A stretch of DNA of 64,000 nucleotides from an uncultured delta proteobacterium. Its GTDB lineage: Bacteria; Desulfobacterota; Binatia; DP-6. Under the pieces are notes generated by a model, which was not told where the DNA came from, did no database searches, and was given only the letters and a program-made list of their open reading frames with translations. A program made the position numbers and the translations under genes. Of the stretch, positions 15,860-47,807 are shown in pieces. Within the stretch, counting starts at the first letter, position 1; the number at the start of each line of letters is the position of its first letter. The DNA lies in NCBI GenBank assembly GCA_963811605.1, contig CAWESA010000011.1, positions 159,698 to 223,697 on the forward strand, read 5' to 3'.

Positions 15860-15990
15860 GGCGGCCCGGGACGCAATTTTCTTGCCTGCTGTCGCGTTTT
15901 TCTTGACACGCACACCGGGGCTCGTGGTACCTCGCCCCCGCCAGACCCGGCTCGACTGGACGAGCGGGGCACACCAGAGGGGGGAACCGG

Positions 15991-18465
15991 ATGACCGGAG
16001 CACGTCGACGCACCATCGGCACGGGAATCGCCGCACTCGCGAGCCTCGTGCTCCTGTCCGCCGGCCCGGCCCGTGCGCAGTCGATCACGGGCCTCGCCGC
16101 GGTCAAGAACGCCGGTAACAACCCGGACAACTTCCAGGACGGCCTCACCGTCAGCTACCAGCGCACCAGCACCGTCGGCGTGCTGTCGAACAACGGCGTC
16201 GTGGCGCGCGTGCGCTACCAGGAAGCCGTCGGCGTCGACGTGGGCGCGTTCTCCTCGCAGAGCAACTCGCTCGCCAGCGATTACAACGTCAACTTCTCCG
16301 TCACGGCTCCGGGCGCCTACGACCTCAACATCACGACCAGCCTGAACGGCGCCTTCACGATCGAGGACGACGGCGACGGGCCGGGCACCGCCGACGCCAC
16401 CGGGGTCACCGGCACGCAGACGGGCGGCACGCTCGCCAGCGGCACGCTCAACCTCACCGATCCGGGTGGCCCGGTCACGTCGGGCAACGTCGGCTTCCTG
16501 CGCACGTCGGCAGCCACCATCCAGGGAACCAGCAACGGGTCGCCCATCGCGCACACGCTCCGCTTCACCTGGAGCGCGAGCTGCAGCAGCAGCAACGGCT
16601 TCGTCACCGGCGGCGACGAGTGCGCCGTGCGGCTTGGCCTGCCCATCACCTACTCGGGGCAGACGGCCGGCAACTACCCCGGCGTCGGCGGTCGCACTGC
16701 CGCCAACGACGGGCACTTCGTGACCATCTCGCTGGTGTCGCTGTGCGGCGACGGCGTGGCGCAGGGAGCGCGTGGCGAGCAGTGCGATCTCGGCGGCGGC
16801 CTCAACGGCATGCCGGGGACCTGCTGCTCCTCGAGCTGCCAGCTGGTCTCCAACGGCACGACCTGCCGGGCCGCGGCGGGTGACTGCGACCTGGCCGAGA
16901 CCTGCAACGGCTCGAGCCCGAACTGCCCGGCCGACCTCAAGAGCACCGCGCTCTGCCGTGCCGCGCCCGGGGTGTGCGACGTCGCCGAGTTCTGCAACGG
17001 CGTGAGCAACACCTGTCCGGCCGATGGCTTCGCACCGGCGAGCACCGTCTGCCGCGCCGCAGCGGGCAGCTGCGACGTGGCCGAGAACTGCACCGGCACG
17101 GGTCCGAACTGTCCCGCCGACGTCATCCGGTCGAACGGCTTCGTGTGCCGGGGCAGCGCCGGCGTGTGTGACGTCGCCGAGACCTGCAACGGCGTGAGCA
17201 CCGCCTGCCCGGCCGATGGCTTCCTCCCGTCCAGCACTTCGTGTCGCGCCGCCGCGGGCGATTGCGACGTCGCCGAGAACTGCACCGGCAGCGGGCCGGC
17301 CTGCCCGGCCGACGCCGTGGAGCCCAGCACGACCGTCTGTCGTCCCGCCAGCGGGGACTGCGACGAGGCGGAGCACTGCGACGGCGCCGGCGTCGCCTGT
17401 CCGCCGGACGCCTTCCTCGGCAGCACGAGCGGCTCGTTCGTGTGCCGGCCGTCGGCCGGCGCCTGCGACACGCAGGAAGTGTGCGACGGGTCGGGTCCGA
17501 ACTGTCCGCCGGATCTCGTCGCCGGTGCGGGGACCCCGTGCCGCGCCTCGGCGGGCGTGTGTGACCTGGCCGAGACCTGCGACGGCTCGAGCGCGGCGTG
17601 CCCGCCCGACGCCAAGAGCACCGGCGTCTGCCGGCCGGCTGCCGGTATCTGCGACGTGGCAGAAAGCTGCAACGGCGTGAGCAACACCTGCCCGGCCGAT
17701 GCCTTCGCCCCCGCCAGCACCGTGTGTCGTGCATCGACCGGCGCGTGTGACGTCGCCGAGAACTGCACCGGCTCGAGCGCATCCTGCCCGGCCGACACCG
17801 GCCTGCCCGACACCGACGGCGATACGGTGTGCGACGCCATCGACAACTGCATCTCGATCCCGAACGCGTCGCAGGCCAACAACGACAGCGACCCGCTCGG
17901 CGACGCGTGCGATCCCTGCACCAACATCGTTCCCACCGTGCAGGCCAAGGCCAAGCTCAGCATGACCAAGCTCCTGGCGCCGACGGGCGACGACAAGCTG
18001 ACCTTCTCGAGCTACTTCACCGGCGTGCCGGGCACCCCCACCGTCGATCCGATCACCAACGGCGCCCGCTTCATCGTCGTCGACTCCACCGGCGCATTCC
18101 CGGTCGACGTGACGATCCCGGGCGGCGCCTACAACACGGCCAACAAGGTCGGCTGGAAGGCCAACGGCAGCGGCACGTCCTTCACCTACAAGAACGCCGG
18201 CACCGTGGTCCCCCTGATCAACGGCATCAACAAGGTGCAGATCAAGGCCATCCCCTCGACCCCCGGGAAGTTCAAGACGTCGGTCAAGGGCAAGAACGGC
18301 ACCTATCCGGTGAACTCGGCGAACCTGCCGCTGGTCGGCACGATCGTGATCGATCCGCCGTTCGCCAGCACCGGTCAGTGCGGCGAGGCACAGTTCCCGG
18401 CCGCGCCGCCCGCCAAGCCCAGCTGCATCACCGTGGGCGCTGGCAAGACGGTCAAGTGCAAGTAG
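15991..18465 (+). CDS. large secreted cysteine-rich tandem-repeat protein (824 aa)
   Basis: Ribosome-binding site AGAGGGGGGAA. Signal peptide MTGARRRTIGTGIAALASLVLLSAGPARA. About ten tandem ~32-40 aa units with the pattern C[RP]xxxGxCDxAExCxGxxxxCPxD. A TSP3-like repeat (DTDGDTVCDAIDNC...NNDSDPLGDACDPC). The C-terminal domain is homologous to that of the 14927-15859 gene. Confidence 0.8.
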   Translation: MTGARRRTIGTGIAALASLVLLSAGPARAQSITGLAAVKNAGNNPDNFQDGLTVSYQRTSTVGVLSNNGVVARVRYQEAVGVDVGAFSSQSNSLASDYNVNFSVTAPGAYDLNITTSLNGAFTIEDDGDGPGTADATGVTGTQTGGTLASGTLNLTDPGGPVTSGNVGFLRTSAATIQGTSNGSPIAHTLRFTWSASCSSSNGFVTGGDECAVRLGLPITYSGQTAGNYPGVGGRTAANDGHFVTISLVSLCGDGVAQGARGEQCDLGGGLNGMPGTCCSSSCQLVSNGTTCRAAAGDCDLAETCNGSSPNCPADLKSTALCRAAPGVCDVAEFCNGVSNTCPADGFAPASTVCRAAAGSCDVAENCTGTGPNCPADVIRSNGFVCRGSAGVCDVAETCNGVSTACPADGFLPSSTSCRAAAGDCDVAENCTGSGPACPADAVEPSTTVCRPASGDCDEAEHCDGAGVACPPDAFLGSTSGSFVCRPSAGACDTQEVCDGSGPNCPPDLVAGAGTPCRASAGVCDLAETCDGSSAACPPDAKSTGVCRPAAGICDVAESCNGVSNTCPADAFAPASTVCRASTGACDVAENCTGSSASCPADTGLPDTDGDTVCDAIDNCISIPNASQANNDSDPLGDACDPCTNIVPTVQAKAKLSMTKLLAPTGDDKLTFSSYFTGVPGTPTVDPITNGARFIVVDSTGAFPVDVTIPGGAYNTANKVGWKANGSGTSFTYKNAGTVVPLINGINKVQIKAIPSTPGKFKTSVKGKNGTYPVNSANLPLVGTIVIDPPFASTGQCGEAQFPAAPPAKPSCITVGAGKTVKCK
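16861..17810 (+). repeat. in-frame tandem coding repeats (~100-120 nt units, ~10 copies) encoding the 4-Cys CxxxxGxCDxAExCxGxxxxCPxD module
   Basis: Repeated tgccg.gccgc...tgcgacgt.gccgagaactgcaccgg.....tgcccggccga nucleotide units are visible. The repeated peptide units are listed in the CDS entry for 15991-18465. Confidence 0.7.
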
Positions 18466-27510: not shown

Positions 27511-28447
27511 GCGATGCAGGCCGCTCGCGTCCACCGCTTCGGCTCGCCCGACGTCATCGCGATCGAGGACGTTCCTCGACCCGCACCCGGTACGGATGAG
27601 GTCCTCGTGCGCGTGCAGGCCGCCGGCGTCGGCCCGTGGGACGCCTGGATCCGAGCCGGCAGGAGCGTCCTGCCCCAGCCGCTGCCGCTGACTCTCGGCT
27701 CCGACCTCTCCGGCAGCGTGCAGGCCGTCGGCTCGGCGGTGAGGGGCTTCGCGCCGGGGGACCCGGTCTTCGGCGTCACCAATCCCCGCTTCACCGGCGC
27801 CTACGCGGAGTACGCGGTCGCCGTGAGCGGCATGATCGCGCGCCGACCCGCGCACGTGGATGCGGTCGAGGCGGCGGCGGTCCCCGTGGTTGCCGTCACC
27901 GCCTGGCAGATGTTGTTCGAGCGGGCGCGCGTGGGCGCCGGCACGACCGTCCTGGTCCACGGCGGCGGGGGGAGCGTGGGTAGCGATCGCCGTCCAGCTC
28001 GCGCGGCGCGAAGGCGCCAGCGTGATCGCGACGGCGGGTGCCGACGATGTCGACTACGTCAGGGGTCTCGGCGCCGCACTGGTCGTCGACCATCGCGCGG
28101 CACGCTTCGAGGAGGTCACCGGTCCGGTGGACGTCGTCATCGACACCGTCGGGGGCGACGTCCAGCGCCGTTCGTTCTCCGTCCTCGCGCGGGGCGGCGT
28201 GCTGGTCTCGATCGTCTCCGAGCCGGATGCCGGCGAGGCGGCGCGACACGGCGTGCACGCGACGTTCCTGCTCGTCAAGGTCACGACGGCGCACCTGGCA
28301 CGCATCGCCGCGCTGCTCGACGACGGCAGCCTCACGACGCGCATCGGCACGGTCCTGCCCCTGTCCGAGGCGCGGTCGGCACACGAGATGCTCGACGGGA
28401 GCCGTGCACGCCCGCGCGGGAAGATCGTCCTGCGCGCCCGGAGCTGA
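27511..28447 (+). pseudogene. NADPH:quinone oxidoreductase / zinc-type alcohol dehydrogenase (MDR family) with a +1 frameshift
   Basis: N-terminal frame MQAARVHRFGSPDVIAIEDVPRPAPGTDEVLVRVQAAGV...VLVHGGGGSVGS. The rest continues in the +1 frame: IAVQLARREGASVIATAGADDVDYVRGLGA...GKIVLRARS. There is an extra base in ggtagcGatcgcc, at about 27984-27988. Confidence 0.7.
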
Positions 28448-28483: not shown

Positions 28484-31400
28484 CTAGCTGCCGCAGAACC
28501 GTGCCGGCGGGATGGGCGTGTCGGCGCACGCGCCGAGCAGCTTCCCCTGTGCCCGGATCAAGGGGGCGTTCCAGCCCGGCGCGCTCTGGCGAATACATCC
28601 CGCCGGCGGGCCCAGGGGCCGGTGGTCCTGATCGTCGGCAACGAACTTCTCCGGGCCCGGGAATGTCACCCCGAAGCCGTACACGCCCCCGTCGGGCCAG
28701 TCGACGTCCTTGCCTGCCCATTGGCCGCAGAGGTCGTTGTCCTTGCAGATCTTCGCGAAGTCTCCGTCCTCGTTGCACACGCAGTCCTTCTTGCGGCTGC
28801 CCAGCGGGAGGTCGCGTGCCTTGCAGAAGCTCGCGGGCTGGCAGAAGTCCCGTTGCGCCTGCGCGAACTCGGTCTTGAACGTGTCGAACCCCATGTCGAC
28901 CGTGACGGTCAGGATGCCGGTGGTGGAATCGTACACGCGCAGCCATCCCTGTGGCCAGGTGTTGCGATCGTCGGTGAACTGGAAATGGCTGGAACCGGGG
29001 AACACGCGCGTCAGGAAGACGTTCGTCTCGGCGTAGCCCGGGTCGAGCCCCGCGCCGACGTAGAGCTGATACACCTGGTGGGTGGTCGGCGTCGCGTAGA
29101 TGAAGAGGACGTAGTACGTCCGGTCGGCCTCGAAGATGTTCTTGAACGGGCTGCTCGCCTGCTTCATGGGACCGGCGGCGGTGTCGATGTAGTAGATGCC
29201 GTTGTTCGCGGTGAGCGTGCTCCGCTGCCAGAGGTTCGCGCCCATCATCCGGATCGCCTGCGTGCCGCCGAACTGCTCCCCGCTGGTCAGTCCCTGCCGG
29301 TAGAGCGGAACCCCGTAGCACGTGCCGGTGGTGCAGTCGCTCCACCAGTTCGGGTTCTGGAGCGGCTCCGGCGTCACCGGGTCCGCCGGCAGGCGATAGC
29401 CGCAGGCCGGCCCCATCTCCGGCGGCTGGGGACCATTCAGCTGCGCACACGCCGGATAGACGACGGTCGTCAGGTACTCGTACGGGCTCGTCTTGGCCGT
29501 GCCCGCCGGAAAGTCCGCCGGCGGATTCGCGACGTCGGAGCCGCACTCGACCGCCTCGATCGGTGCGTCGAAGTAGCCATCGAAGTTGACCGAGATGGTC
29601 TCGCGCTCCGCCCCCTTCGCGCCGTCCGGATTCGCGATCAGTCCGGTGAGCGAGCCGTCGTCGTCGTTCAGCACCGTCTGCCGGTCGACGTCGGTGAACC
29701 CCTTGAAGAGACCCTGGGCCGGATCCACCGGGGTCGGATACGTGCAGTAGCGCTTCTCCACTCGTCCCTCGTCGGTGTTGAACGTGCCCGGAGCGAACTC
29801 CGGCTGGATCACGAAGTGACGGATGTCCGCCTTGTCGAAGTAGAGGTTCTGCGAGTGGAACGCCGGCGGGTAGAAGAACCCGTTCGGCTGCTTCCACCCG
29901 ATCGCGGCGTTCGGCAGGTAGCAGGTGCCGGTTGCGTCCTTCGGCATCCCTCCGAGGCGGCCGTACAGCTTCATCGCGCCGGGACATGCATTCCCCTGGG
30001 TCTTCTGACACTGCGACGCGAGGTCCGGGAGCCTCGCCGGCACGATGTCCAGGTAGGCGTTGGAATCCTGGTAGGAGGGTCCGTCGTAGATGCTGAACAG
30101 GCGCTGGTTGGTGGCGAAGTTCGCGACCTCGAAGTCGACCCCGTCGTCCGCAGCGATGCAGTGATTGGGGAGGGCGTTGAGCGTGGAGTCGTTGATCGGG
30201 CATTGCAGGCCCGAGTGCGGGTTGAACGGACCGACGTCCGCCGCATATGGATTCGCCTTCGGATCCTCGCTCACGTCCTTCTGGGTTCGGCCCACGAAGG
30301 CGCTCTTCGCCGCCACCGACCAGACCCCGTCGATGACCGAGGACCGGGTGTAGTCACCGCCGGTCACGAAGGTGAGGCCGCCGTTCTGCACATCGGTGAT
30401 CGCGCTGTTCGAGAGCACGTACCAGAACTGTCGCAGCCACACGGCCGCGAAGTTCGTATCGGCCCAGTTGAACGACGAGGTATAGCGATCGAGGACCGTG
30501 ACCATGCAGTTGGCGATCTGTCGATCCTCGGGCGGCGGCAGCGGAGCCGGTCCGTTGGCGCCGCACTTCTTGACCGTGGCGTCGTCCCCGCAGTCGAGGT
30601 CCGCCACCTTCTTCGGATCGGGGCCGCAGCGGGTCGCCGGACGCGACCCGCCCGCGACCACTCGTGGATAGTAGACTTCCAGATCGATGTTGCCCTGAAC
30701 GACCGGGGCGAGCGGGTTCGGGACGGGCGCCAGGTGCTCCTTGTCGCCGGGGTTGACGAGGGGCGCGACCCCGTTGCAGTCGGCGAACTGGCCGACGGTC
30801 TGGAACGAGTTCATCGCCGACGTGCACGTATTGCCGACGAAGTTCATCAGCGGCGTCGTTCCCGCGCGTCCGAGATTGCTCTGCATCGAGGCATAGCCCG
30901 TCCAGGCCATCTTCGAGTACGGCGCGCACATGAAGCCCTCGCCGCTCGACAGCTGGCACTCGGATTTCCCTTCTCGCGGCGGCGGCTGGTTGAGGCACGC
31001 GGCACCGCGCTTGCCGGTCGCCGGATCGTAGCAGGAGAACGAGTTCTCCCGGCCGCTGTTGTACCCGGGGAGGAGCCAGTAGCAGGCGCCGCAGCTCCCC
31101 GCGCCGGCGGCGAAGTTGTAGCGGAAATCGTTCCAGCCATTCATGATCCAGAACACGGTCGGGGTCTCGGAATCGGAGTGGTACGGCGAGTTGTGCTGAC
31201 GATCCGTGAAGGTCGCCGAGAGAATGCCGGGAACCTTGCGGGGATTCTGGCTGTTGTCGACCGCGGCGCGGGCGAGGATCCCGATGTTCGAGTACAGCTT
31301 GTTGTCCGTCTCCGTACCGTCCTCGATGTAGTAGCCATGGCCGATGGACATGTAGCCGACGTTGCGCGCGAGCAGGACGTCCTGGGTGGCGTGCAACGTG

Positions 31401-32707
31401 ATCCAGCGGGTCATCGAGTCGTGGATCGAGCAATCCTTCACGAAGGTGTTGTTCGGCGCGTTCCGGACCATGTGGAAGTGCACGGGATAGTGCCCGATCC
31501 GGCCGCCCTGCCCGGCCTGGTAGAGCTCGACGCCCTGCATCTGGTAGGCCCGGAAGCCCTGGCGCACCAGGGTGTGCGCGCCGTGCGAGTAGCCGGTCTT
31601 CGCATCCGGGAAGTCGGCGTCCCGCGTGTCACCGGCCGAGACGATGCGCACGCTACGCGTGAGCAACGCCACCGCGGCGCGGGTATCGACGGCGTCGATG
31701 TTGAGATCGAGCCGCTCGATTCCCGGATGGTCCTTCTTGCTGAGCGAGTACTGCTCTCCCTGATGATGGTACTCGACGCCGCACGACGGTGAGTCACCCG
31801 GCGGGCAGGTCGCCTTCGTGAAGTGGATCTTGGTTCGCTTCTTCGCCAGATTGACGAACGTTCCGGTGATGATCAGCTCCTCGGAGTGTCCCGGCAGGTA
31901 GTCGGTGGTGGTGACGACGATGTGATCGTCCTCGCGCCAGTCGACGATGCCGTCGACCACCAGCGTATCGTCGCCGGGTACGAGCGACTCGTCGAGTCGC
32001 CGCCAGCTCCGTCCCGAGTTGGACGGATCGTCGTCGCCGGACCCGTACAGCGCACCCCGCTTGCCGAAGATGCGTAGCGTGCCGCCGTAGGAGACCGCCA
32101 GCACCTTCGTTCCGAAGTAGCTGGGTGTGCCCTGCCCCTCGGTGAGCGGCATCACGTCGTAGTTGTAGAAGAAGTCCGGCCCGCCAGGGAGCTGCGACTT
32201 GACGGGCGGCTTGGTGGGATCGGCGTTGGAGTTCCAGATCACTGCCTCGACGCCGCAGGTCGGTCCCGACTTGCAGGCGATCGGCTCGTCGCCCTCGGCG
32301 CCGTACAGCCGGATCGTGAGCACCGATCCCTCCCGACGACCGATGGGCCGCGGTTTTCCATTCGTCATCGACGACCATCCTGCGAGCAGGAAGCCGTAGT
32401 TCTCGACCAGGATCGAGCGGGCCGAGAACGTGATCTTTGCATCCCTGAACTTCAAGGTGGCCGGCGTCTTGTCGGTGCCGAAGATGTTCACGTTGCCGTA
32501 GGAGTACGTGCCCGCGTCCACGACGCAGGTCCCGGTGACCTCCAGGTCCTGCCCGTCGCCGCCTTTCGGCAGCATCTGGCTTCCGCCCGACGGACACGTC
32601 ACCGCGAGAGCGTCGGGGGCCGCGGTGATCATGGTCACGACCAGCAACGCGGCCGCGGCAAGGCGGAGAAGGGTCGGGTGAGAGTCGTCAGCAGGCGTTC
32701 GAGGCAT
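28484..32707 (-). CDS. giant secreted right-handed beta-helix protein (1407 aa), possibly G8-domain / CEMIP-TMEM2-like
   Basis: Start MPRTPADD mapped to 32707. Signal peptide LLRLAAAALLVVTMITAAPDALA. Contains W..GD.IVV.TTDY (VDGIVDWREDDHIVVTTTDYLPGHSEELIITG) and GRIGHYPVHFHM. Cys-rich C-terminal region (CKARDLPLGSRKKDCVCNEDGDFAKICKDNDLCGQW). The 1513-aa ORF call includes an upstream artefact. Confidence 0.7.
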   Translation of the reverse strand: MPRTPADDSHPTLLRLAAAALLVVTMITAAPDALAVTCPSGGSQMLPKGGDGQDLEVTGTCVVDAGTYSYGNVNIFGTDKTPATLKFRDAKITFSARSILVENYGFLLAGWSSMTNGKPRPIGRREGSVLTIRLYGAEGDEPIACKSGPTCGVEAVIWNSNADPTKPPVKSQLPGGPDFFYNYDVMPLTEGQGTPSYFGTKVLAVSYGGTLRIFGKRGALYGSGDDDPSNSGRSWRRLDESLVPGDDTLVVDGIVDWREDDHIVVTTTDYLPGHSEELIITGTFVNLAKKRTKIHFTKATCPPGDSPSCGVEYHHQGEQYSLSKKDHPGIERLDLNIDAVDTRAAVALLTRSVRIVSAGDTRDADFPDAKTGYSHGAHTLVRQGFRAYQMQGVELYQAGQGGRIGHYPVHFHMVRNAPNNTFVKDCSIHDSMTRWITLHATQDVLLARNVGYMSIGHGYYIEDGTETDNKLYSNIGILARAAVDNSQNPRKVPGILSATFTDRQHNSPYHSDSETPTVFWIMNGWNDFRYNFAAGAGSCGACYWLLPGYNSGRENSFSCYDPATGKRGAACLNQPPPREGKSECQLSSGEGFMCAPYSKMAWTGYASMQSNLGRAGTTPLMNFVGNTCTSAMNSFQTVGQFADCNGVAPLVNPGDKEHLAPVPNPLAPVVQGNIDLEVYYPRVVAGGSRPATRCGPDPKKVADLDCGDDATVKKCGANGPAPLPPPEDRQIANCMVTVLDRYTSSFNWADTNFAAVWLRQFWYVLSNSAITDVQNGGLTFVTGGDYTRSSVIDGVWSVAAKSAFVGRTQKDVSEDPKANPYAADVGPFNPHSGLQCPINDSTLNALPNHCIAADDGVDFEVANFATNQRLFSIYDGPSYQDSNAYLDIVPARLPDLASQCQKTQGNACPGAMKLYGRLGGMPKDATGTCYLPNAAIGWKQPNGFFYPPAFHSQNLYFDKADIRHFVIQPEFAPGTFNTDEGRVEKRYCTYPTPVDPAQGLFKGFTDVDRQTVLNDDDGSLTGLIANPDGAKGAERETISVNFDGYFDAPIEAVECGSDVANPPADFPAGTAKTSPYEYLTTVVYPACAQLNGPQPPEMGPACGYRLPADPVTPEPLQNPNWWSDCTTGTCYGVPLYRQGLTSGEQFGGTQAIRMMGANLWQRSTLTANNGIYYIDTAAGPMKQASSPFKNIFEADRTYYVLFIYATPTTHQVYQLYVGAGLDPGYAETNVFLTRVFPGSSHFQFTDDRNTWPQGWLRVYDSTTGILTVTVDMGFDTFKTEFAQAQRDFCQPASFCKARDLPLGSRKKDCVCNEDGDFAKICKDNDLCGQWAGKDVDWPDGGVYGFGVTFPGPEKFVADDQDHRPLGPPAGCIRQSAPGWNAPLIRAQGKLLGACADTPIPPARFCGS

Positions 32708-33259
32708 CGTGCGCTCCTGGTTCAGATGACGGCGGCCACGTTCATACTCGCCGGGTCGATCGCGGCCAGCACCTGTCCGTTTCAACGATCCCGCCCCTTG
32801 CAGTCGTGTGGTGCTGCAGATGACTCCGGCATAGGCGGTTGTGGCGAGAGGAGCTTCCTGACGAAGCCGAGCAGCTCCGCGGCCGAGCCGAAGCGTGCGG
32901 CGACACCGGAGGCGATGTGCTCGGCGCGGCCGATGAAGAGGTCGCCGCCTGGGGTGCCCGGCGCCCGGAGCTGGATCACGAAGGCACGGTCGGGTGGAAG
33001 CGGCCCGTCCATGTCCACGACCCACGGTGGGTCGGCGCTGCGGTCGTCGGGTGCCATGGTCTTCCCCCTACCGCCCGAGCGACGCCCCGGTCCGTAAAGA
33101 ACGCGAAGAGTTCGCGTAAAATCGAGACTCCTCGGGGGACCTCAGTCGGGGCGAGGGGCAGGCGATGCGGCGGTCACTCGCCGTCGGATCACCGGGGCCT
33201 GTTGCGGCCCGTTGGAGCAAGCCGCCCGACACGGTATCTAGCCGATCACCCGATCGACC

Positions 33260-36159
33260 ATGCCACCGGAGGTCTCGACGTCCCCCCACGTGATCGCCTT
33301 TCCGCCCTTTCGAGCTGGACCTGCGGGCGGGGCTGCTTCGTCGAGGCGCCAGCCCGGTGCCCCTGCGGCCGAAGACCTTCGCCGTCCTGCAGTATCTCGC
33401 GGCGCACCCGGGCGACCTGATCTCGAAGCAGGCCTTGCTCGATGCGGTCTGGGGCGACGTGGCGGTCTCGGAGGACGTCGTCCGCCTGTCGATCGGCGAG
33501 CTGCGGGTGGCACTCGGCGACGACCGCGCCGCGGCCCGCTTCATCGAGACCGTTCCCCGGCGCGGATATCGCTTCACCGCCATCACGGAGACGGCGGGCC
33601 CCCCGCTGGACGGCCCGCCGGCGGCGACCGGCGTGGTGGTCGGCCGCGTGCGCGAGCGGGCCGCACTCGCCGACGCGTTCCGGCTGGCTGCCGCTGGCCG
33701 CCGGCAGCTGATGTTCGTCTCCGGGGAGGCGGGGATCGGGAAGACGACCCTCGTCGACACCGCGGTCGGCGAGCTCCTCCGCGCCTCGGGACCCCGGCCG
33801 CGCGTCGGGCGCGGCCACTGCGTCGAGCAGTACGGCGGGGGCGAGCCGTACCTGCCGATCCTCGAAGCGATCGCCGGCCTCAGTCGCGGTGCGGACGGTC
33901 CGGCGGTCCAGGAATCGCTGGAGCGGCACGCACCCGACTGGTTGCTGCGCGTGCTCGGGCTGCTTCCACCCGGCAGGTCCGCGGCGGCGGCCGGCACGCA
34001 GGAGCACACGCTGCACCGGCTCGCAGCCAGTCTCGACGCCCTCGCCACGGAGACGCCGCTCGTGCTGGTTCTCGAGGACGTGCAGTGGAGCGACTACGCG
34101 ACCCTCGACCTCCTCTCGGTCCTCGTCCAGCGCCGCGAGCCGGCGCGGCTGCAGCTCATCTGCACCCTGCGCCCGGCGGACGCGATCGTGCGCGCGCACC
34201 CGGTCTCACGCATGAAACGCGAGTTGCGGCGGAAGGACCTGTGCCGGGAGATCCTGCTCGGCGGCCTGTCGCCATCGGATGTCGCGAGCTACCTCGCGGC
34301 GCGCTTCGCGCAGCCCGACTTTCCCGACGCGCTGCTGCGCCTGTTCGTCGAACGCAGCGAGGGGAATCCGTTCTTCATGGTGGCGCTCGTCGACCACCTG
34401 CTCGCGGACGGGCTGCTCGTGCAGCGCGACGGACGATGGGAGGTCCAGGGCGACCTCGAGGCGCTCCGCACGGCGATCCCCGAGGGATCGCGTGCAGTCA
34501 TCGAGCCGCAGCTCGAGCGCCTCGGGGACGAGGAGCGTCACCTGCTCGAGGCGGCGAGCGTGGTGGGACTGGAGTTTCCGGCTCACGCCCTCGCCGCGGT
34601 CGCCGGCGACGGCGACCCGGCCGACGTCGAGCGCGTGGAGGCGGTGTGCGAGGCGCTCGTGCGCCGCCAGGAGATCCTGCGCGCGGCGGGCGAGAGCGCG
34701 TGGCCCGACGGCACGGCCGGCGCACGCTACGCCTTCCGGCACGCGCTGTACCGGCAGGTCGTCTACCAGCGGCTGTCGTCCTCGACCCGACGGCGCCTCC
34801 ACCAGGGCATCGGGGAGCGCATGGAGGCAGCATTCGGAGAGCGCATCTCGGAGATCGCGAGCGAGCTGGCGGCGCACTTCGAGCGCAGCGGCGACGTCGA
34901 GCGCGCGGTCCGCCACCACTGCGAGGCAGCGGCCCGCGCGGGGGCGCGGTTCGCCTACCAGGAGACCCGCCTCCACCTCGAGGCGGCGCTCGGTCTCATC
35001 CACGAGCAGCCGGAGACGCTACCCCGCCTGCGCCAGCAGCTCCCGCTGCTCGAGACCCTCGGCACGACCTTGTTCGCCACCCGGGGCTACGGCGACGAGG
35101 GTGCAGCGCAGGCGTTTGCACGCGTCCAGGAGATCGCCGAGCGGCTCGACGGCGCCGAGGCGCGGTTGCAGGCGATGGGGGGTCAGCTGATCGTGCACAC
35201 GATGCGTGCGGAGCTCACGACCGCGCGTGCCCTCGGCGAGGCGATGGTCGTCCTGGCCGAGCAGCTCGGGAAGCCGGCAGAGCTCGCCAGCGCCCACACC
35301 ATGCTGGCTGCGGCGCTGTTCGGCCTCGGCGAGGTCGAGGCGGCGCGACTCCACGCCGAGCGGGGACGGGCGCTGTTCGATCCCGGGGCTCCGCCGCTGC
35401 CGACGAACACCGGCGTGCAGAGCTCCATTCTCGTGGCGTCGGCATGCGGCTATCTCGGCCTCGTCGAGCAGGCATGGGCCATGAACCGCGACGCCCTGGC
35501 GCGTGCCGCGACGCTGGGCACCCCGTTTCATCGTGCCCTCGCGACCAACCTCGCGGCGCAGGTCTGCATGCTCCTCGACGACGCGAGCGGCGCGCACCCG
35601 CTGGCCGAGGAAGCCGAGCAGCTCGCCGCCGCCTACGACCTGGCCGTGTTCCGGCTCACCGCGACCATGGTGCGCGCCTGGTGCGAGGTCGCGCAGGGAC
35701 GCGTTCGGGACGGCCTCCCCCTCCTGCAAGACGCCTTCGACGAATACGGCACGACCGGGCAGCGCTTCGGCACCACCAGCTTCAGCATGATCCTGGCTCG
35801 GTCGCACCTGGCCGGCGACGACCCTGCACGCGCGGCTGCCGTCGCCGACGCCGCCCTGTCCTTCGCCGCCGAGACCGGTGAGCGTGTCTACGAGCCCGAG
35901 CTCCTTCGCTTGAAGGGCGAGTGCCTCCTCGCCAGCCTCCTCGTCCCGCGGCCGCAAGGACGCGACGACATGCTTCGAGCGGGCACTGGCGATCGCCGCC
36001 GACCGCAAGGCCCTGCTCTTCGAGCTCCGGGCCGCACTCAGCCTCCTGCGGCTCGGCGGGCACTCGGTGCGCGCGCGCGTCGTCCGCCTGGTGGACCGGT
36101 TCGCTACCGGGGCCGATTGCCTGGACCTGCGCGCAGCGCGGGCCCTGCTCTTCCGCTAG
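33260..36159 (+). CDS. STAND-type regulator: OmpR/PhoB-type winged-helix DNA-binding domain + P-loop NTPase + TPR (two apparent frameshifts)
   Basis: Winged helix: F(R)PFELDLRAGLLRRGASPVPLRPKTFAVLQYLAAHPGDLISKQALLDAVWGDVAVSEDVVRLSIGELRVALGDD...PRRGYRF. Walker A: VSGEAGIGKTTLVD. Walker B: LVLVLEDVQWSD. Long TPR-like tail. A TGA at 33291 precedes the domain, and the protein-like N-terminus MPPEVSTSPHVIAFPPF is in a different frame (shift near 33300-33315). The true C-terminus (...CFERALAIAADRKALLFELRAALSLLRLGG...LDLRAARALLFR*) is in another frame (shift near 35925-35950). The stop is at 36157-36159. Confidence 0.7.
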
Positions 36160-36333
36160 GCCGGCGCGCCGCGGTGGCGCGTCGAGACGTCGCATGCTCG
36201 CAGTCTCCAAGCGAGCACTGCCGGCTGCGAAGCGCGGCTATTCACTGAGGATTGACACGTTCGGGGACCGTCCACCGTCTCTTCCGGTATCTCGTTCCTC
36301 CGTACACATCGGCACGCCAAGGCATCACGCAGC

Positions 36334-38113
36334 ATGACTCTCGACTCGCGAGGGTCGGCCGGCGCTGCCTCTGCCGCCCGCGCTCGTGACTCCGCCACGC
36401 GGTCGCGGCGATCCGTTCCCGTTTCCCTGCTCCTGTGCGCCATCGCAGGGGCCACGGGATTCGGCCCGTCGCGGGACGCCCTGGCCGATCCCGCGGTCTC
36501 GTCACTCCAGCGCGTGCCGGTATGCGGCGATCAGGACGCCTCGTCGGTACAGCTCAAGTGCGCCGACTTCCTGCCCATCTCCGACATCGAGCTCTTCCGC
36601 GTTCCGGGCCAGGGCCCGGTGGACCTGACCTTCGACTTCGTCTTCGCCGAGGCAGCCGTCCCCAACGAGCTCGGCCTCTTCCGGGTCGACGCGATCGACG
36701 GCAGGATCGGGAACCTCAGTCCCGCCGAGCCGGGGTATCTCGCCGCCGCGCTTGCCCGCACGCAGACCATCTTTGCCTCGGGTTCGGATGCCTTCGTCGG
36801 CGACCGGATGGTCCAGCGTCGACGGCGGCGACCTCCTGGTCTTCCTCATCGTGCACGGCGGCAGCCTCGCGGAGCTGCGGGCGGCGAACCCGACCAACGA
36901 TCCCGCCATGACGCCGGTCGCCTTCTTCTCGCTCACGCGAATCAATCCCGATCCCGGCTCGCGCTACGGCGGCGACCATCTCGTCGGCTTCCAGAGCGCG
37001 TCGTCACCGCTCACCGAGTTCGCCTTCGAGGACACCGGTCTGTTCAGCGACTGGGACTTCGACGACGTCGTCTACACGGTCTCGGCACGCCTCGAGCGCC
37101 CCGCCTGCGACGGCCAGGACGGCGACGACGATGGCGTGGCCGACGTCTGCGACACCTGCCCGGCGGTCGCCAATCCCGATCAGCGCGACAGCGATGGCGA
37201 CCTGGTCGGCGACACGTGCGACAACTGCCTGCGGGTTCCGAACCTGGCGCAGACGGACTCCGACGGCGACGGCCGCGGGGACGCGTGCAGCCTCGAGGTG
37301 TGCGGGGACGGCCGCGACAACGACGGCAACGGCCTCGTCGATGCCGCCGACCCGTTGTGCCCGACCCTGCGGATCGAGAAGCTGGCGCAGCCGCTCAGCG
37401 GCGCCAGGATCGGCGCGACGGTCCGGGTGAAGGGACGGGGCTTCGGCACCACCCGCGGAGCCGTCGAGCTGGGCACGGAGGACGTCTCCGTCGACGGCTG
37501 GCGCGACAGGAAGGTCACCTTCTCGGTGCCGCCGCTGGCCGGCGGCGTCTATCTGGTGCGCGTGCTCCGGGGCGAGGCACGCAGCGAGCACGAGGCTCTG
37601 TTCGTGCCAGGGACGCCCGTCTACCGGAGGAAGGCCACGCTCCGGGCGCTCGCCGACGTGCTCGGCACGACGTCCTGGTGGCCGTACTACGACGGCCTGG
37701 CGCGCCGCGCGCCGGCGCTGGCGAATCCGTTCTGGCTGCACGACTCGCTGGTCTCCGATCCCGGCACCGCGGGCTTCGTGACCTCGGCCATCGCGTCCAT
37801 CGACGCCACGACCTACGGGAGGTCCGGACGGCAGCGCCGCCGCGCGGCCAAGACGTTCAGCGCGTGCGAGCGGCACTACCTCCGCCAGATGCCCGACGAG
37901 GTGCTCGATCGATACCTCGCCTGCGCCGCCTATCCGGGCCCCAAGAAGCGCTTCCGCGCGCTTCCCCCGGACGTGCAGCTGGCCATCCTCAATGCGGGCG
38001 CACCCGCAACCGGCAGATACTGCTTCGCGGGGTCGGCGTACCAGAGCGCGTGTCGCGACGTCCTGCGCGCCGGTGGCATCAGCGACGCCGCTCTCGCCAC
38101 GCTCGGGTTCTGA
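36334..38113 (+). CDS. secreted DUF4114 + thrombospondin type-3-like repeat protein (frameshift near 36805-36815)
   Basis: Frame A: signal peptide, then [23 protein letters not shown]...[12 protein letters not shown]. Frame B continues ...[58 protein letters not shown]...[19 protein letters not shown] (DUF4114-like). Then acidic TSP3-like repeats ([37 protein letters not shown]...[11 protein letters not shown]). Then an IPT/TIG-like segment and a C-terminal domain. Confidence 0.6.
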
Positions 38114-40593: not shown

Positions 40594-40990
40594 CAGATGG
40601 TCGAGAATCGCGTCACGCGCATCACGTTGGCCCTTTCGACGATCGCCCGGACCTCGGTCGGTCGAGCTCGGGTCCTAGTACGCGGCGTGTACCAGATCAC
40701 CTGGATGAAGTCGTCGCCTCGTCGTCGCCAGGGTGCGCGATGGGCGCGACGAGAGGCAAGTCGATCGTGGTGGCGCGGCGGCATCGTCACCGAGCTGCGC
40801 TCGCCCACTGTCGCCCGGCCCGCGCCGCGACAGCGTCCACCGGACGCGACGGGCTGTCCGGCGGTGGCGACACTCCCCGCGCGTGCGATGCCCGTGCCGG
40901 CGGGAAACGAGTCGCCCGAGCGTTGGCCGCGCTCTTGCTTGGGGGCCGATCGCTGGGCGTCCTGCCGCACGAGACGCCGGGAGGTATGCG

Positions 40991-43060
40991 ATGGCGGAAT
41001 GGAAGGCCGGTACGCGGCGGCGAGCCCGCTCCTGGTGGCTGCTCCTCGGGCTGGTCCTGGTCGCGCCCGGAGTCGCGGCCGGCCAGGCAACCACCGCCGT
41101 CACGGGACAGTTCGTCGTCTACTGGGTGGACGGCTTCTCGGACGGTGGAAGTCACCCGGCATACCGACTGCGCGAGACGGAGAGCGGCCGCAGCCTCGAG
41201 CTGATATTCGGCACGCCGCCCGCCGACCTGCGCAGCGGTGATCGCGTGGTCCTACACGGTGTCGAGTCTCCCGCCGGCGTCCTCCGCGTGGAGCGCTACG
41301 AACCAGCCGGCGCCGTGGCGGGAACCCCCTTCGCTGCCGCAAGCACGCCCGCCCCGCCCAGCGGCGAGCAACGAACGGCGATCCTGCTTCTCAACTTCCT
41401 CGACGCCACCCTCACCTGCACCACGGCCCAGATCGAGGACCGGCTGTTCGCTGCCGCCGACTCGGTCAGCCACGCATACGCGGAGACGTCGTCCGGCCGC
41501 GTCTGGTTCGGCGGAAAGGCGTTCGGCCCCTTCCTGATCAAGGACCGGCGCTCGGAGCACTGCGACCCGTTCGGCTGGGCGGCGCGGGCCGACCTGCTGG
41601 CCGCCACCTCCGGGATCGACCTGCGCTTCTACCCCCGCCGGCTGTACGTGGTCGCGACCAACCCGTCGTGGTCGTGCGGCTGGGGCGGCATCAGCGAGCT
41701 CGGCGTGACGCCCAGCGCATCCGTCGTCGAGGACTATGGCCGGTGCGGCTACGACCACGTCCACGCCCACGAGCTCGGACACGCCCTCGGCATGAGTCAC
41801 GCGGGCATCGACCCGGGCGACGTGGGCGAGCTCGCCGACGAGTACGGCGACGCCTCCGACTTCATGGGCGGGAGCTACCTCCCTCTCAGCCACACCAACG
41901 CCCCGCACAAGTTCCAGATGGGCTGGGTATCTCCCGAGGCGGCGCCCATCGTCGACCATAACGGGCGCTTTCCCCTCCGCCCGCTGGAGACACCGCTCGA
42001 TTCCCCGTGGTGGCCGGCGATGCTGCGCATCGCCCGGCCGGGATCCGAGGCCGCCTATTTCGTGTCGTTCCGTCGTCGCATCGGGTTCGACGCCAACCTC
42101 GACGACGTGTTCAGCGAGCACACCAGCATCCACCGCTGGGGAAACGACGAGGACGGCGGCCGCACGGCGCTCATCCGCACGCTGGGCGACGACGACACGT
42201 TCGCTGGCCCGGGCTTCGTCGTCTCGCAGCTCGATCGCTCGCCGGGCGGGGCCTTCGTCGAGGTGGCGTTCTCGTGCGAGCCGTTCGCTCCGCGCCTCGA
42301 CGCGTCTGCTCCATCACCGGACGGGCGCTCTCGCCTGCACGTCGACCTGGGGATCCGCAACGACGACACCGCCCTGTGTCCGCCCTCCTCGTTCTCGGTC
42401 GACGCCGTCGGACCGCCCGGCTGGTCGGTCACGGCATCCCCGCCGACGCTGGCGATCGGGGCCAAGGCTCGGGCCACCGCGACGCTGCAGATCGAGATGC
42501 CGGCCGGCACTCCGCCCGGGGCCTACGAGCTCACCGTCGCGGTGGCGGGCGCTGCGAGCACGCAGCACGCGCAGGTCGTGGTCCCGGTTCCGGTCAGCAC
42601 CCTGCCAGGCGGAGGGGGCGGGGGCGGTCAGCCCGGCGACGGCGGAGACGGCGGAAGCGGCGGGGGCGACTCCGAGGAGTGCACCGCCGCCTCGATCGCC
42701 CCGCTCGACCGTGCCCGCTGCCTCACCGCCCGGTTGCTCGCCGACGGTCCGTGCGCAGCGGACGGGTTGCGGCACACCGTCGCGGGGCGCCTGCGCAGGG
42801 ACGTCGAGACACTCGACCGTCTGCTCGGGAAGATCGCGCGGGCGAGTCGGCGGCGCGCTCACGTTCTCGCCGGGCGCGCCGCGAGGCTCGCGAACGGCCT
42901 GATGCGCTTCGTGCGCCGGCAGTCGGAGCGGAGGCGGATACCGGCGACATGCGCCAACCCCACGATAGCGACGGTCAATCAGCTTCGGCCGCTGCTTCAG
43001 GGCTTCGGGTCGGGAACGGCGAAGTCGGATCGAAGCGGCCCGGCGGGGTCGGGCGGCTAG
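40991..43060 (+). CDS. secreted zinc metalloprotease, M11 (gametolysin)-like metzincin, with Gly-rich linker and C-terminal helical domain
   Basis: Start MAEWKAG at 40991. Signal peptide WWLLLGLVLVAPGVAAG. Zinc site HAHELGHALGMSH (HExxHxxGxxH). Linker GGGGGGQPGDGGDGGSGGGD. The 775-aa ORF call includes an upstream artefact. Confidence 0.7.
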   Translation: MAEWKAGTRRRARSWWLLLGLVLVAPGVAAGQATTAVTGQFVVYWVDGFSDGGSHPAYRLRETESGRSLELIFGTPPADLRSGDRVVLHGVESPAGVLRVERYEPAGAVAGTPFAAASTPAPPSGEQRTAILLLNFLDATLTCTTAQIEDRLFAAADSVSHAYAETSSGRVWFGGKAFGPFLIKDRRSEHCDPFGWAARADLLAATSGIDLRFYPRRLYVVATNPSWSCGWGGISELGVTPSASVVEDYGRCGYDHVHAHELGHALGMSHAGIDPGDVGELADEYGDASDFMGGSYLPLSHTNAPHKFQMGWVSPEAAPIVDHNGRFPLRPLETPLDSPWWPAMLRIARPGSEAAYFVSFRRRIGFDANLDDVFSEHTSIHRWGNDEDGGRTALIRTLGDDDTFAGPGFVVSQLDRSPGGAFVEVAFSCEPFAPRLDASAPSPDGRSRLHVDLGIRNDDTALCPPSSFSVDAVGPPGWSVTASPPTLAIGAKARATATLQIEMPAGTPPGAYELTVAVAGAASTQHAQVVVPVPVSTLPGGGGGGGQPGDGGDGGSGGGDSEECTAASIAPLDRARCLTARLLADGPCAADGLRHTVAGRLRRDVETLDRLLGKIARASRRRAHVLAGRAARLANGLMRFVRRQSERRRIPATCANPTIATVNQLRPLLQGFGSGTAKSDRSGPAGSGG

Positions 43061-44440: not shown

Positions 44441-47400
44441 TCAGACGGAGAGCTCCCGCAGCAGCGCTCTCGCCTCTCGGAGATCGCGGGTGTCGCAAGC
44501 CGCCGGGAACCAGCCGCAGACGTCGCCGAGGTGCCGCCGGGCCTCGTCGGAACGCCGAGAAGCCTCGAGCCAGCGGGCATAGCTGGTGGCCGCCCGCAGC
44601 TCGAGCGAGCGAGCCGTCTGGTGGCGCGCCAGCTCGAGCGCGTCGCGGAAAGCCGCCTCGACCCGTCCCGGATCCGCTCCGCGCCGGACGAGCAGCTCGG
44701 CACGCAGACGATGCAGCTCGGGTTCGAACAGGCGCTCGTCGGTCGCCATGGCGAGGGCCTCCTCCACCGTGGCGGTCGCCTCCTCGATCGCGCCCGCGTC
44801 GGCGTACGCCTGCGCCAGCCAGGAGAGATAGAGACGGTGCGAAACCCGCTGGCCAGTGGCACGGAAGATGGCGAGCCCCTTGCGGAGCTCGTCGAGGGCC
44901 TCCTCGCACCGGCCGTCCTCGGAGAGGGCGGCTCCGCGCACGATCGTCGCCAGGCCAACGAAGAGCGGGAACTGATGCTCGCTGGAGAGCGCGATCAGCG
45001 GGTCGACGTGCTCGAGCGACCGGCGAGGCTCCCGCAGGAAGACGTGGAGTGCGGCCGTGAAGAAACCGGCCCAGGCGACCGCGAGCGGGTTGCGCAGGTG
45101 TTCCGCCAGCTCCAGCGACGCGCGGCTGTGCTCGCGTGCCTCGTCGACGAGCCCGAGCGTCCACGAGTTGACCGTCGCGTAGCTGAGCGCCATGATCCCG
45201 GGATCGGACGGGCTCGCGGGTCGCTCGACCTCCCGGTAGAGGACGACGACCTGGGCGAGGTGTTCTCGTGCCGCCGCCGCGTCGCCGAGCGAGTAATGAT
45301 TGATCCCGTGGGCCAGGTGTCCCCAGACCATCTCGCTGCGCCTCCCGGCCTGATCCGCCGCCACCAGAAGCTCGTCCGCCAGGTCGCGGGCGACGCGCAG
45401 CTCCCCCTGTCCGGCGATCGAGGTCCAGAGACCGAACAGCACCGAGAGGAGCTCGGGCGTGCCGCCGACTCGCCGGGCGAGCTCTCGTGCGCGGGCAAAG
45501 GCGTCGGTCACCTCGCGTGCCCCGTAGCCCTTGGTCGCCGCCAGCGCCTGGCCGAGAAGAATCTGCAGGTTCAGAGCCTGCTGGGGTCGAGCCGGTGCGT
45601 CCGGGAGCATGGCGAGCACCCGCAGCGCCGTCGCGAAGTGACCGGCGGCTTCGCGCAGGGCCGAGCGTGCGACGGCGAGCTCCCCCGCGCGTTGCCACGC
45701 TCGCCAGGCGGTCTCGAGCTCGCTCGCTTCCGTGTAGTGGTGCGCGAGCAGCTCCGGCATCGCCTCCGCGGTCTCCGGGAAGCGCTCGGTCAGGGCGCGG
45801 GCGATGGCTAGGTGCAGCTCACGGCGGCGCCTCTTGAGGAGCGAGCCGTACGCCGCATCGCGGATGAGCGCGTGCTTGAAGACGTAGGTCGCCTCCGGCG
45901 GAAAGCCTCGCGCGTAGAGCAGCTCGGCGGTGGCAAGGCGCGCGAGCGCAGCGTCGAGGTCCGGCATCGGCGATCCGGCGACCGCCTCCAGCAGGCCGTA
46001 CGAGAAGTCGCGCCCGATCGCCGCTCCGATCTGCGCGATCCGTCGCGCCGAGCCGAGGCGGTCCAGGCGCGCTGCCAGCAGATCCTGGAGCGTCGCCGGG
46101 ATCTGGCCCTGCGCCACGCGCCCGATCTCGTCGGTCATGAGGCGCGTCAGCTCTTCCGCGAAGAGCGGTACGCCGTCGCTGCGCGCGACCAGCATCTCCA
46201 CCAGCTCCGGCAGCGCGCTCGTCATCATCTGGCGCACCTGCTGCTGGCTGAGCCGGTCGAGGGTGGCCACCGTGAAGTTCGACCGCGGCGGCCACGTGCA
46301 CCGGAACTCGGGGCGGGCCGTGCACAGCATCAGCACCGGCGCCGTCGCCGCCTGCTGTCCGATGAGCTCGAGAAGCTCGATCGTCGAGGGATCGGCCCAC
46401 ATCAGATCCTCGACGACCAGCACCACCGGTTGGATGGCAGCCGCCCCCAGGAGCCACCTGACCAGCGTCGTCATCAACCGCTGCCGCTGCTGCCCCGGGG
46501 AGCCGACGAGCGTCGGCGAGCGGTCGGGCGGCAACGTGAGGCCGATCAGCTCCGCCACGCACGGCGCTGCCTCGTCCGGATCCAGCCCGGCCGTCGCGAG
46601 CGCGCGGTCGAGCAGCAGGAGCCGCTGATCCGTCGCTTCACCGCACTGCTTGGCGAGTGCCTGCTGGAGCATCTCGATCACACAGAAGAAGGGCGTGTTC
46701 GGGTGATAGGAGGACGCAGCGCACTCGATCCAGGTGTGGTCACGGTCGGCGATGTCACCCCGGAAGACCTCCAGCAGCCGTGACTTGCCGATCCCGGGCT
46801 CGCCACTGATCAGGAACACTTGACCCTCGCCCCCCTGCACGCGCTCCCATCGGCTGAGCAGGAGCGCACGCTCCGCCTCGCGACCGACGAAGGGCGTCAG
46901 CCCGTGCGCGCCGGCGGCCTGCAACCGGCCCCGCGCTCCGCTCGGCTGCAGCACGCGGTAGAGCGCCACGGGCTCCGGGATGCCCCGCAGGACATGGGCG
47001 CCACGCTCCTCCACCAGGAAGAGCCCGGCGACGAGGCGGCGCGTGCTCTCGGTGATCAGGACTTCGTTCGACCCGGCGATCTGCTGGACCCGTGCAGCCA
47101 GGTGAACCGCTTCGCCGAACACATCGGTCTCGTTCCCGCCCCCCTCGCCGATCACCACCTCGCCGGTGTGGACCCCGACCCGGACCGCGAGCTGGACCCC
47201 GTACTGCTTCTCGAGACGCTCGTTGAGCGCCGCCAGCGCGTCGAGGATCGCGATCCCCGCCCGCACGCCGCGTTCCGGGCTGTCATCGTGAACCGTCGGG
47301 TAGCCGAAGTAGGTGAGGAAACCATCTCCCAGAAACCTGGCGATGAAGCCCCCGAAGCGCTCGACGGCCTCCGTGCCGCACCGCTGATACTGTGCGTTGA

Positions 47401-47694: not shown

Positions 47695-47807
47695 CGCGGC
47701 GCCCTCCTCCGCGCCCCGCCGGACGTGGGCGGCCCGGACCGCGGGGCCGACGTCGCCACCGGCAGTCTTTGCGAAGCCCGATCGACGCCGGTAAGTGCAC
47801 GAGGCCG

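Follow-up and report, generated by a model that had tools for sequence, protein, structure and literature searches.

TMEM2 (CEMIP2) is a vertebrate cell-surface protein that degrades hyaluronan, and CEMIP (also named HYBID or KIAA1199) is a secreted vertebrate hyaluronan depolymerization factor. Debate continues over whether these proteins cleave hyaluronan in their own right and over the position of their active site (PMC10206443, PMC10474455, PMC12423501, PMC13113925). In both CEMIP and TMEM2, substitutions causing loss of hyaluronan degradation map to a lectin-like domain, GG-1 (PMC10206443, PMC12423501), and the deafness mutations R187C/H of CEMIP, which abolish activity, are located in the same domain (PMC12423501). 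No characterized bacterial CEMIP-like or G8 protein was found in the literature that we searched, which agrees with the initial annotation of the locus described here, where bacterial members had been called essentially uncharacterized. The locus lies within a 64,000-nucleotide (nt) stretch of DNA (the window) from an uncultured delta proteobacterium of the Binatia (GenBank assembly GCA_963811605.1, contig CAWESA010000011.1, positions 159,698 to 223,697 of the forward strand) and centers on a gene for a protein of 1407 amino acids (aa). This protein adds a new member to a bacterial family that is already known and annotated in databases; for this family, the main result is that a counterpart of the CEMIP/TMEM2 helix is widespread in bacteria and lacks GG-1. 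On balance, the protein is probably an exported beta-helix enzyme of the CEMIP/TMEM2 superfamily that cleaves a polysaccharide and is encoded by a stand-alone gene.

Both sequence searches and structure prediction place the 1407-aa protein with TMEM2. The match to the Pfam model for the CEMIP beta-helix (Table 1) far exceeds the model's cut-off of 27.3 bits, and that to the G8 model falls narrowly short of its own (22.2 versus 22.9 bits). Besides these two, there was no Pfam match in the protein at E<=1, and no NCBIfam model matched it. When all PDB sequences were searched, the TMEM2 ectodomain (8c6i) was the sole match, at E=2e-24 for the single protein and at E=3e-41 for a family profile built on 75 sequences; the alignment of this profile to the G8 region of TMEM2 is weak. 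An AlphaFold model of aa 30-1229, made from the family alignment, has a mean predicted local distance difference test score (pLDDT) of 83.9 and a predicted template modeling score (pTM) of 0.89. In a Foldseek comparison of this model with the PDB, TMEM2 ranks at the top (E=2.9e-24, TM-score 0.47, 1355 aligned columns, 14% identity) and is followed by a Klebsiella K1 capsule lyase, hydrolases of glycoside hydrolase (GH) families 110 and 87, and phage tailspike depolymerases, the right-handed parallel beta-helix enzymes 7w1c, 9beh, 4ru4, 7jw4, and 6k0v matching at E values from 2e-6 to 2e-2. For a second model, covering the C-terminal region (aa 960-1407), TMEM2 (8c6i_A) is the only significant match (E=7.2e-6, 388 aligned columns); a C-terminal GG-2 (lectin-like domain 2) gave no Pfam match in this region. 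As modeled, the fold of the 1407-aa protein is like that of the TMEM2 ectodomain over most of its length. A G8/CEMIP-TMEM2-like beta-helix, which the initial annotation had named with reserve and for which it had proposed structure prediction as a check, is thereby borne out by the domain matches, by the PDB search, and by both models.

The resemblance to TMEM2 extends to size (about 1300-1400 residues), to the order of regions (G8, borderline in the bacterial protein, at the start of the helix, then the CEMIP beta-helix core and a C-terminal region), and to the core residues W/TDY, YPVHFH, SR.IT.H, GH...EDG.E..N, and FW. Both proteins are extracytoplasmic, but the bacterial one would reach this location with a cleavable signal peptide, whereas TMEM2 has a type II membrane anchor. 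The CEMIP beta-helix match (aa 375-545) aligns to TMEM2 chain residues 378-608. Along the whole family profile, positions 62-124 align with TMEM2 chain residues 64-128, positions 173-206 with residues 128-160, positions 212-513 with residues 319-609, positions 655-719 with residues 701-765, and positions 895-914 with residues 863-882. TMEM2 chain residues 160-319 are thus left without a bacterial counterpart, with just 6 profile positions in their place, and it is at this position that the TMEM2 structure paper places GG-1, inserted into the helix (PMC10206443). A search for the GG/ILEI (PANDER) domain, which had been suggested along with the G8 proposal, came back empty, with no such Pfam domain in the 1407-aa protein at E<=1 or in 35 family members at E<=0.01. 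Judged by its sequence, the bacterial protein is without the lectin-like GG-1 domain, an absence that matters because the degradation-abolishing substitutions of CEMIP and TMEM2 fall there.

The bacterial family has features of its own that TMEM2 does not share, namely, longer Cys-rich loops at profile positions 124-173, 513-655, and 719-895, and an invariant CGAC that is absent from TMEM2. The possibility that CGAC forms a heme c site was considered and rejected, since the next residue is Tyr and not His. With CEMIP, according to its published domain description (PMC12423501), the bacterial protein has the signal peptide, CEMIP_beta-hel, and, as a borderline match, G8 in common; CEMIP contains both GG-1 and GG-2, of which GG-1 is absent from the bacterial protein. 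A parallel beta-helix fold is also common to 7w1c, GH110 alpha-galactosidases, GH87 alpha-1,3-glucanases, phage tailspike depolymerases, and chondroitinase B, which follow TMEM2 in the fold comparison at E values between 2e-6 and 1e-3, but these show no detectable sequence similarity to the bacterial protein, yield query-normalized TM-scores of 0.1-0.16, and are exceeded by it two- to threefold in length. In 50,697 phage records, no homologue of the 1407-aa protein was found among possible phage depolymerase relatives. The product would be best described, from its alignment and models, as a putatively exported, cysteine-rich, single-chain right-handed parallel beta-helix of the CEMIP/TMEM2 (G8 plus CEMIP beta-helix) superfamily. 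Its alignment with the TMEM2 ectodomain begins in the G8 region and reaches the C terminus, without the GG-1 insertion and with Cys-rich loops specific to the family.

The gene reads from an ATG at 32707 to a stop codon at 28484-28486 on the minus strand, and its product is 100% identical to one database protein and can be aligned end to end with more than 1000 homologues. The frame remains open upstream of this ATG, as far as 33025, where there is a GTG, but the ATG is preferred as the start because it is preceded by AGGAG (Table 1) and is followed by a signal-peptide-like N terminus. This N terminus, MPRTPADDSHPTLLRLAAAALLVVTMITAAPDALA, followed by VTC, reads as a signal peptide, so that the protein likely carries a Sec-type export signal, and a secreted protein of 1407 aa is indeed what had been annotated. 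The mature protein contains 39 cysteines. A lipoprotein was considered and rejected, as the lipobox is absent from the protein and from its homologues, whose N-terminal signal peptides end a few residues before a conserved Cys, in no case within a canonical lipobox. Two motifs had been singled out in the annotation, and of these RIGHYPVHFHM occurs exactly as given; the other, W..GD.IVV.TTDY, reads WREDDHIVVTTTDY here, with D in the fourth position, where the family consensus has the G. Within the latter motif, the family shows no variation at W257, T268, and D269, and TMEM2 also has the W, T, D, and Y.

The window has a G+C content of about 71%, with a dip at 28-32 kb. A horizontal-transfer island was considered as the source of this dip and rejected: the G+C content at third codon positions (GC3) of the large gene is 0.87, as in the adjoining genes. 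Because GC3 stays at this value, the dip stems from codon positions 1 and 2.

Table 1. Features of the locus, with positions in the window
Feature	Position	Strand	Basis
Gene for CEMIP/TMEM2-like, probably exported beta-helix protein, 1407 aa	28484..32707 (stop codon included)	-	Open reading frame and translation
Shine-Dalgarno sequence AGGAG	32714..32718	-	6 nt upstream of ATG 32707, read from sequence
Sec-type signal peptide (aa 1-35), likely cleavage after ALA	32603..32707	-	Sequence reading
G8-domain match, borderline (aa 58-114)	32366..32536	-	Pfam PF10162, E=1.3e-4
WREDDHIVVTTTDY motif (aa 257-270)	31898..31939	-	Sequence and family alignment
CEMIP beta-helix domain (aa 375-545)	31073..31585	-	Pfam PF24606, E=5.9e-45, 154 bits
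RIGHYPVHFHM motif (aa 403-413)	31469-31501	-	Exact match
Candidate active site: RIGHYPVHFHM (403-413), TRWITLH (433-439), SIGHGYYIEDGTETDN (454-469)	31301..31501	-	Conservation and predicted strands
SCGACYW (aa 538-544), invariant CxxC; CGAC is aa 539-542	31076..31096	-	Bacterial family alignment
C-terminal region (aa 960-1407)	28487..29830	-	No Pfam match; AlphaFold mean pLDDT 85.3, pTM 0.88
Zn-dependent alcohol dehydrogenase gene	27514..28447	+	Pfam ADH_zinc_N on 3' half
Conserved 91-aa open reading frame	32782..33057	-	G+C by codon position 0.75/0.57/0.79
Gene for winged-helix (OmpR/CadC-type) + AAA_16 + helical-repeat regulator	33260..36159	+	Pfam Trans_reg_C and AAA_16; breaks in frame near 33305 and 35944
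Second STAND protein (double zinc ribbon + adenylate/guanylate cyclase + AAA_16 + TPR)	44441-48541	-	27% identical to regulator over STAND part

More than 1177 database proteins match the 1407-aa protein, many of them under the name 'G8 domain-containing protein'. Full-length identities range from 43 to 53% across unrelated phyla, or about 45% over >1200 residues, a level that extends over the Acidobacteriota, Binatia, Thermodesulfobacteriota, Gammaproteobacteria, Betaproteobacteria, and Spirochaetia. When 1.84 billion cluster representatives were scanned exhaustively with HMMER, 415 clusters were recovered at E<=1e-30 and 2539 at E<=1e-10, and relatives are encoded at 488 loci among 185,579 species genomes. 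The closest relatives in these genomes occur in metagenome-assembled genomes (MAGs), two labeled 'uncultured delta proteobacterium' (86% and 77% identity) and one from the Binatia (66%); among the more distant carriers are Acidobacteriota, Binataceae, Thermodesulfobacteriota, Thiocapsa, Methylotetracoccus, Competibacteraceae, Burkholderiales, Dadabacteria, Spirochaetia, and Paludibaculum. Carriers available in culture include Thiocapsa, Paludibaculum, Sorangium, and Methylotetracoccus. Among the 35 family members searched with Pfam, all contain CEMIP_beta-hel and 34 contain G8 at E<=0.01 (best E, 1.8e-12). Some members have C-terminal pentapeptide, RTX, or SLH extensions. The family alignment has about 170 invariant columns, and His, Glu, Asp, or Arg occupies many of these. 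In some MAGs, two copies of the family were present on separate contigs (three such pairs of loci).

Many of the polar residues conserved in the bacterial family are also conserved in TMEM2. Those that are invariant (75 of 75 sequences) and identical in TMEM2 are W257, T268, D269, E276, H315, R343, Y407, H410, H412, S431, R434, H439, G456, E462, E466, N469, D512, F519, and W520. To these can be added the near-invariant residues (68 to 74 of 75) H378, P408, H457 (74 of 75), G464, and D463 (68 of 75), which are likewise common to TMEM2. In the AlphaFold model, H410/H412, H439, and E462-E466 are situated on or just after strands 409-412, 436-439, and 459-461, which occur once per rung on three successive rungs, about 27 residues apart. 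Beta-helix polysaccharide enzymes usually have their catalytic groove at such rung positions (PMC10206443). From this one-dimensional (1D) periodicity of the predicted strands, we infer that the residues cluster and that the conserved polar ladder may form the active site (Table 1), in which a catalytic or substrate-binding groove would probably be built from H410/H412, R434/H439, and H457/E462/D463/E466 on successive rungs.

The most likely role of the protein is that of an extracytoplasmic polysaccharide-cleaving enzyme. The export signal, the conservation across phyla, and the depolymerizing enzymes among the fold neighbors all favor an exported enzyme that cleaves glycans. Its substrate is perhaps an exopolysaccharide of the producing cell or of a neighbor rather than hyaluronan, which is an unlikely substrate in soil and sediment bacteria. 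Distant, shorter G8 proteins on plasmids, with about 27% identity over the core, occur in contexts resembling glycan uptake and lend weak support to such an enzyme: in Haloferax mediterranei pHME322, a G8 gene is found among genes for a sugar ATP-binding cassette (ABC) transporter, NagZ, and a PIG-L deacetylase, and on a plasmid of Croceibacterium atlanticum, the genes for a TonB-dependent receptor and a MarR regulator lie between two G8 genes. A more specific proposal is that the family keeps the ancestral catalytic core of CEMIP/TMEM2 without GG-1, that the YPVHFH, IT.H, and GH..EDG.E..N ladder is the active site, perhaps a metal-dependent one, and that the family represents a new family of carbohydrate-active enzymes on bacterial exopolysaccharides; this proposal is a tentative one, with chances somewhat short of even. 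Having the same helix core and polar residues but no GG-1, the bacterial family is suitable for testing catalysis by the helix: it offers a simple, non-glycosylated system in which to ask whether the helix is catalytic, and the invariant polar ladder shared with TMEM2 supplies a specific candidate for the disputed active site that can be put to the test. If the helix is catalytic, soil and peat organisms would be the source of a further class of bacterial enzymes active on polysaccharides.

Several points weigh against an enzymatic role. The protein contains no signature of a GH or polysaccharide lyase (PL) family such as GH28, GH87, GH110, PL1, or PL6 (Pfam at E<=1, NCBIfam), and it is missing the very domain that carries the activity-abolishing mutations of the animal proteins. 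Glycan-related neighbors are not conserved across the family loci, some carriers are phototrophs or methanotrophs not known for degrading polysaccharides, and the argument from the rung ladder rests on 1D strand positions and not on measured three-dimensional proximity. It is conceivable, though rather unlikely, that the protein is a non-catalytic beta-helix of the surface or periplasm with a glycan-binding, adhesive, or scaffolding function, much as human TMEM2 and CEMIP have been viewed as non-cleaving regulators of hyaluronan breakdown. The missing GH and PL signatures agree with such a function, as do the SLH, RTX, and pentapeptide extensions of some members, which are typical of surface proteins. 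Adhesins and scaffolds, however, usually evolve fast, and this is at odds with the roughly 45% identity and the approximately 170 invariant columns that persist across phyla and that include clustered His, Glu, Asp, and Arg; moreover, the nearest folds after TMEM2 are all depolymerizing enzymes. The findings on TMEM2 itself point both ways. Its active site could not be assigned, and the soluble protein had no hyaluronidase activity in the hands of one group (PMC10206443), and a passage in a review cites work holding human TMEM2 to be non-catalytic (PMC12423501), but another group measured intrinsic activity for the purified TMEM2 ectodomain (PMC10474455).

A different chemistry on the same fold is less probable still. 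Under this alternative, the protein would be a metal-dependent modifying enzyme (an epimerase, esterase, or oxidoreductase) or a maturation factor resembling the beta-helix protein NosD, with the invariant His residues and the CxxC serving as metal or redox ligands. The number of invariant His residues is unusually high (H274, H315, H410, H412, H439, and H964, along with the near-invariant H378, H406, H457, and H951), the invariant CGAC has no equivalent in TMEM2, a mannuronan C-5 epimerase occurs among the fold matches, albeit weakly (rank 38), and among the carriers are organisms not known to degrade polysaccharides. But the NosD, Beta_helix, and epimerase models of Pfam are unmatched at E<=1, the Tyr after CGAC leaves no heme c site, conserved partner genes for redox or metal handling are absent from the vicinity of the family loci, and lyases and hydrolases match the fold far better than the epimerase does. 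An exported polysaccharide-cleaving enzyme remains the explanation that we favor over both of these.

The gene arrangement raises the question of whether the large gene is part of a local regulatory unit. The large gene (minus strand) and a gene for a regulator of the signal transduction ATPases with numerous domains (STAND) class (plus strand) are divergent and head-to-head, with start codons 553 bp apart. They had been annotated as convergent and as sharing no promoter, but the distance of about 550 bp given for their separation is that between the start codons. A conserved 91-aa open reading frame (ORF) is located in the gap; it has the strand of the large gene, begins its 74-nt distance upstream of that gene, and is separated by 202 nt from the ATG of the regulator. 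A local unit of the large gene, the 91-aa ORF, and the regulator, in which the regulator would control the large gene from the shared 202-bp region between the 91-aa ORF and the regulator, would fit the head-to-head layout, which is common for a regulator and its target, the winged helix-turn-helix (wHTH) DNA-binding domain of the regulator, and the closeness of the 91-aa ORF to the large gene; even so, we regard such a unit as quite improbable. A regulator homologue adjoins none of 81 homologous loci, including those of the 86%, 77%, and 66% identical orthologues, and the 91-aa ORF is absent from the same 81 loci and is found elsewhere in an unrelated context. As assembled, the regulator can be read only after two frame repairs, and the window contains further STAND genes, which makes a chance adjacency plausible. 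No Rfam element was detected in the gap at E<=0.1, and no sigma-70-like promoter was found there by a scan that says little at 70% GC.

The conservation of the neighborhood was evaluated from the window and the 81 homologous loci with flanks of +/-10 kb (82 sequences), by clustering six-frame ORFs after all-against-all BLASTP. No partner gene common to the whole family emerged across the 81 loci, and the most widespread non-self neighbor cluster, a generic ABC ATPase, occurs in 12 of the 82 sequences. The regulator ORF had no BLASTP match at 1e-15 in any of the 81 loci; a looser tblastn search yielded one partial match, which belongs to a differently built STAND gene situated about 4 kb away from the beta-helix homologue of that locus. 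The neighbors of an 84% identical orthologue are entirely different. A search for the pairing in other genomes, as the initial annotation had recommended, thus turned up no regulator homologue within 10 kb of the gene at any of the other loci, and a conserved pair of beta-helix gene and regulator was rejected. The adjacency of the two genes is best read as coincidence. In the proposed explanation, the large gene would stand alone, with the wHTH-AAA-TPR STAND gene as a divergent neighbor that has no conserved link to it, and the locus itself is ordinary: one stand-alone gene without a conserved partner.

At six loci, a gene resembling flavin adenine dinucleotide (FAD)-dependent amine oxidases and UDP-galactopyranose mutase (GLF), followed by a PMT_2 (GT-C) glycosyltransferase gene, is located downstream of the beta-helix gene. 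The beta-helix proteins of this branch, which come from Thermodesulfobacteriota, Dadabacteria, and Spirochaetia, have C-terminal pentapeptide repeats, and the FAD and PMT_2 neighbors are a possible glycan link for this pentapeptide-repeat branch only. At eight other loci, all from Binataceae and 'delta proteobacterium' MAGs, a gene for a secreted NHL/beta-propeller (Vgb-lyase-like) protein of about 680 aa is found within a few kilobases of the beta-helix gene.

The 91-aa ORF is considered a real small gene because it has five homologues of 75-157 aa that are 61-73% identical to it (E down to 1e-18). It has no Pfam match, and its conserved motif is LPPDRAFVIQLR...G.LFVGR.EHI.SG...RF.S..EL..F. 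On another metagenome contig, it has a PHO4 phosphate transporter gene on one side and STAS/chemotaxis genes on the other. The true convergent neighbor of the large gene is an alcohol dehydrogenase gene, with 36 nt between the two stop codons, and this gene is frameshifted at a run of six guanines (GGGGGG) near 27985.

The regulator has all three parts of the wHTH-STAND regulators, i.e., an OmpR/CadC-type winged helix, AAA_16, and a TPR-like sensor, but differs from this class by its two frameshifts as assembled. Its winged helix is recognized by the Pfam model Trans_reg_C at E=1.5e-16 and its AAA_16 domain, with the Walker A sequence GEAGIGKT, at E=2.1e-25, and the remainder is aligned by NCBIfam to the STAND/TPR part of TIGR03903. 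Identity as a SARP regulator was excluded, there being no BTAD domain. The domains of the annotated regulator (wHTH, AAA_16, and helical repeats) were therefore recovered, but the interval assigned to it (33260-36159) is not one open reading frame as assembled. The longest single frame, 33357-36248, has its start within the winged-helix domain and runs out into Arg/Pro-rich nonsense; the N-terminal winged-helix strands (FELDLRAGLLRRGASP) are in frame upstream of 33357 without a start codon, a different frame holds the sole ATG (33260), and the expected C terminus (CFERALAIA...DLRAARALLFR, stop codon at 36157-36159) is in a third.

Repair at about 33305 and about 35944 carries the PhoB/CadC and TIGR03903 matches to both ends of the regulator. 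The match to TIGR03903 extends from positions 479-1229 (of 1267) as assembled to 479-1264 when repaired, raising the score from 239.9 to 249.6 bits (a gain of 9.7), and that to PhoB extends from positions 155-225 to 130-225, raising the score from 31.3 to 38.0 bits (a gain of 6.7). A tblastn search with a paralogue from the window agrees on the frame changes. Both occur at short homopolymer runs, as does the break in the alcohol dehydrogenase gene, giving three frame breaks (27985, 33305, and 35944) within 8.4 kb. Because all three are at homopolymers and lie so close together, they look more like long-read assembly errors than like three separate pseudogenes.

Elsewhere in the window, positions 15907-18465 (+) encode a protein of 852 aa in which the Disintegrin model (Pfam PF00200, E=4e-61) matches 10 stretches; animal ADAMs and snake venoms are the best-known sources of this domain. 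Three further genes, at 36629-38113 (+), 40709-43060 (+), and 56938-60315 (+), encode secreted-looking proteins with domains typical of eukaryotic extracellular matrix proteins or of Cys-rich repeat proteins. Among these three, one has thrombospondin type 3 repeats and DUF4114, one has a gametolysin M11 peptidase and NPCBM_assoc, and one has CarboxypepD_reg, a Vgb-lyase-like propeller, and DUF4215. If the CEMIP-like protein and the disintegrin protein are counted as well, genes for matrix-like or Cys-rich proteins are numerous in the window.

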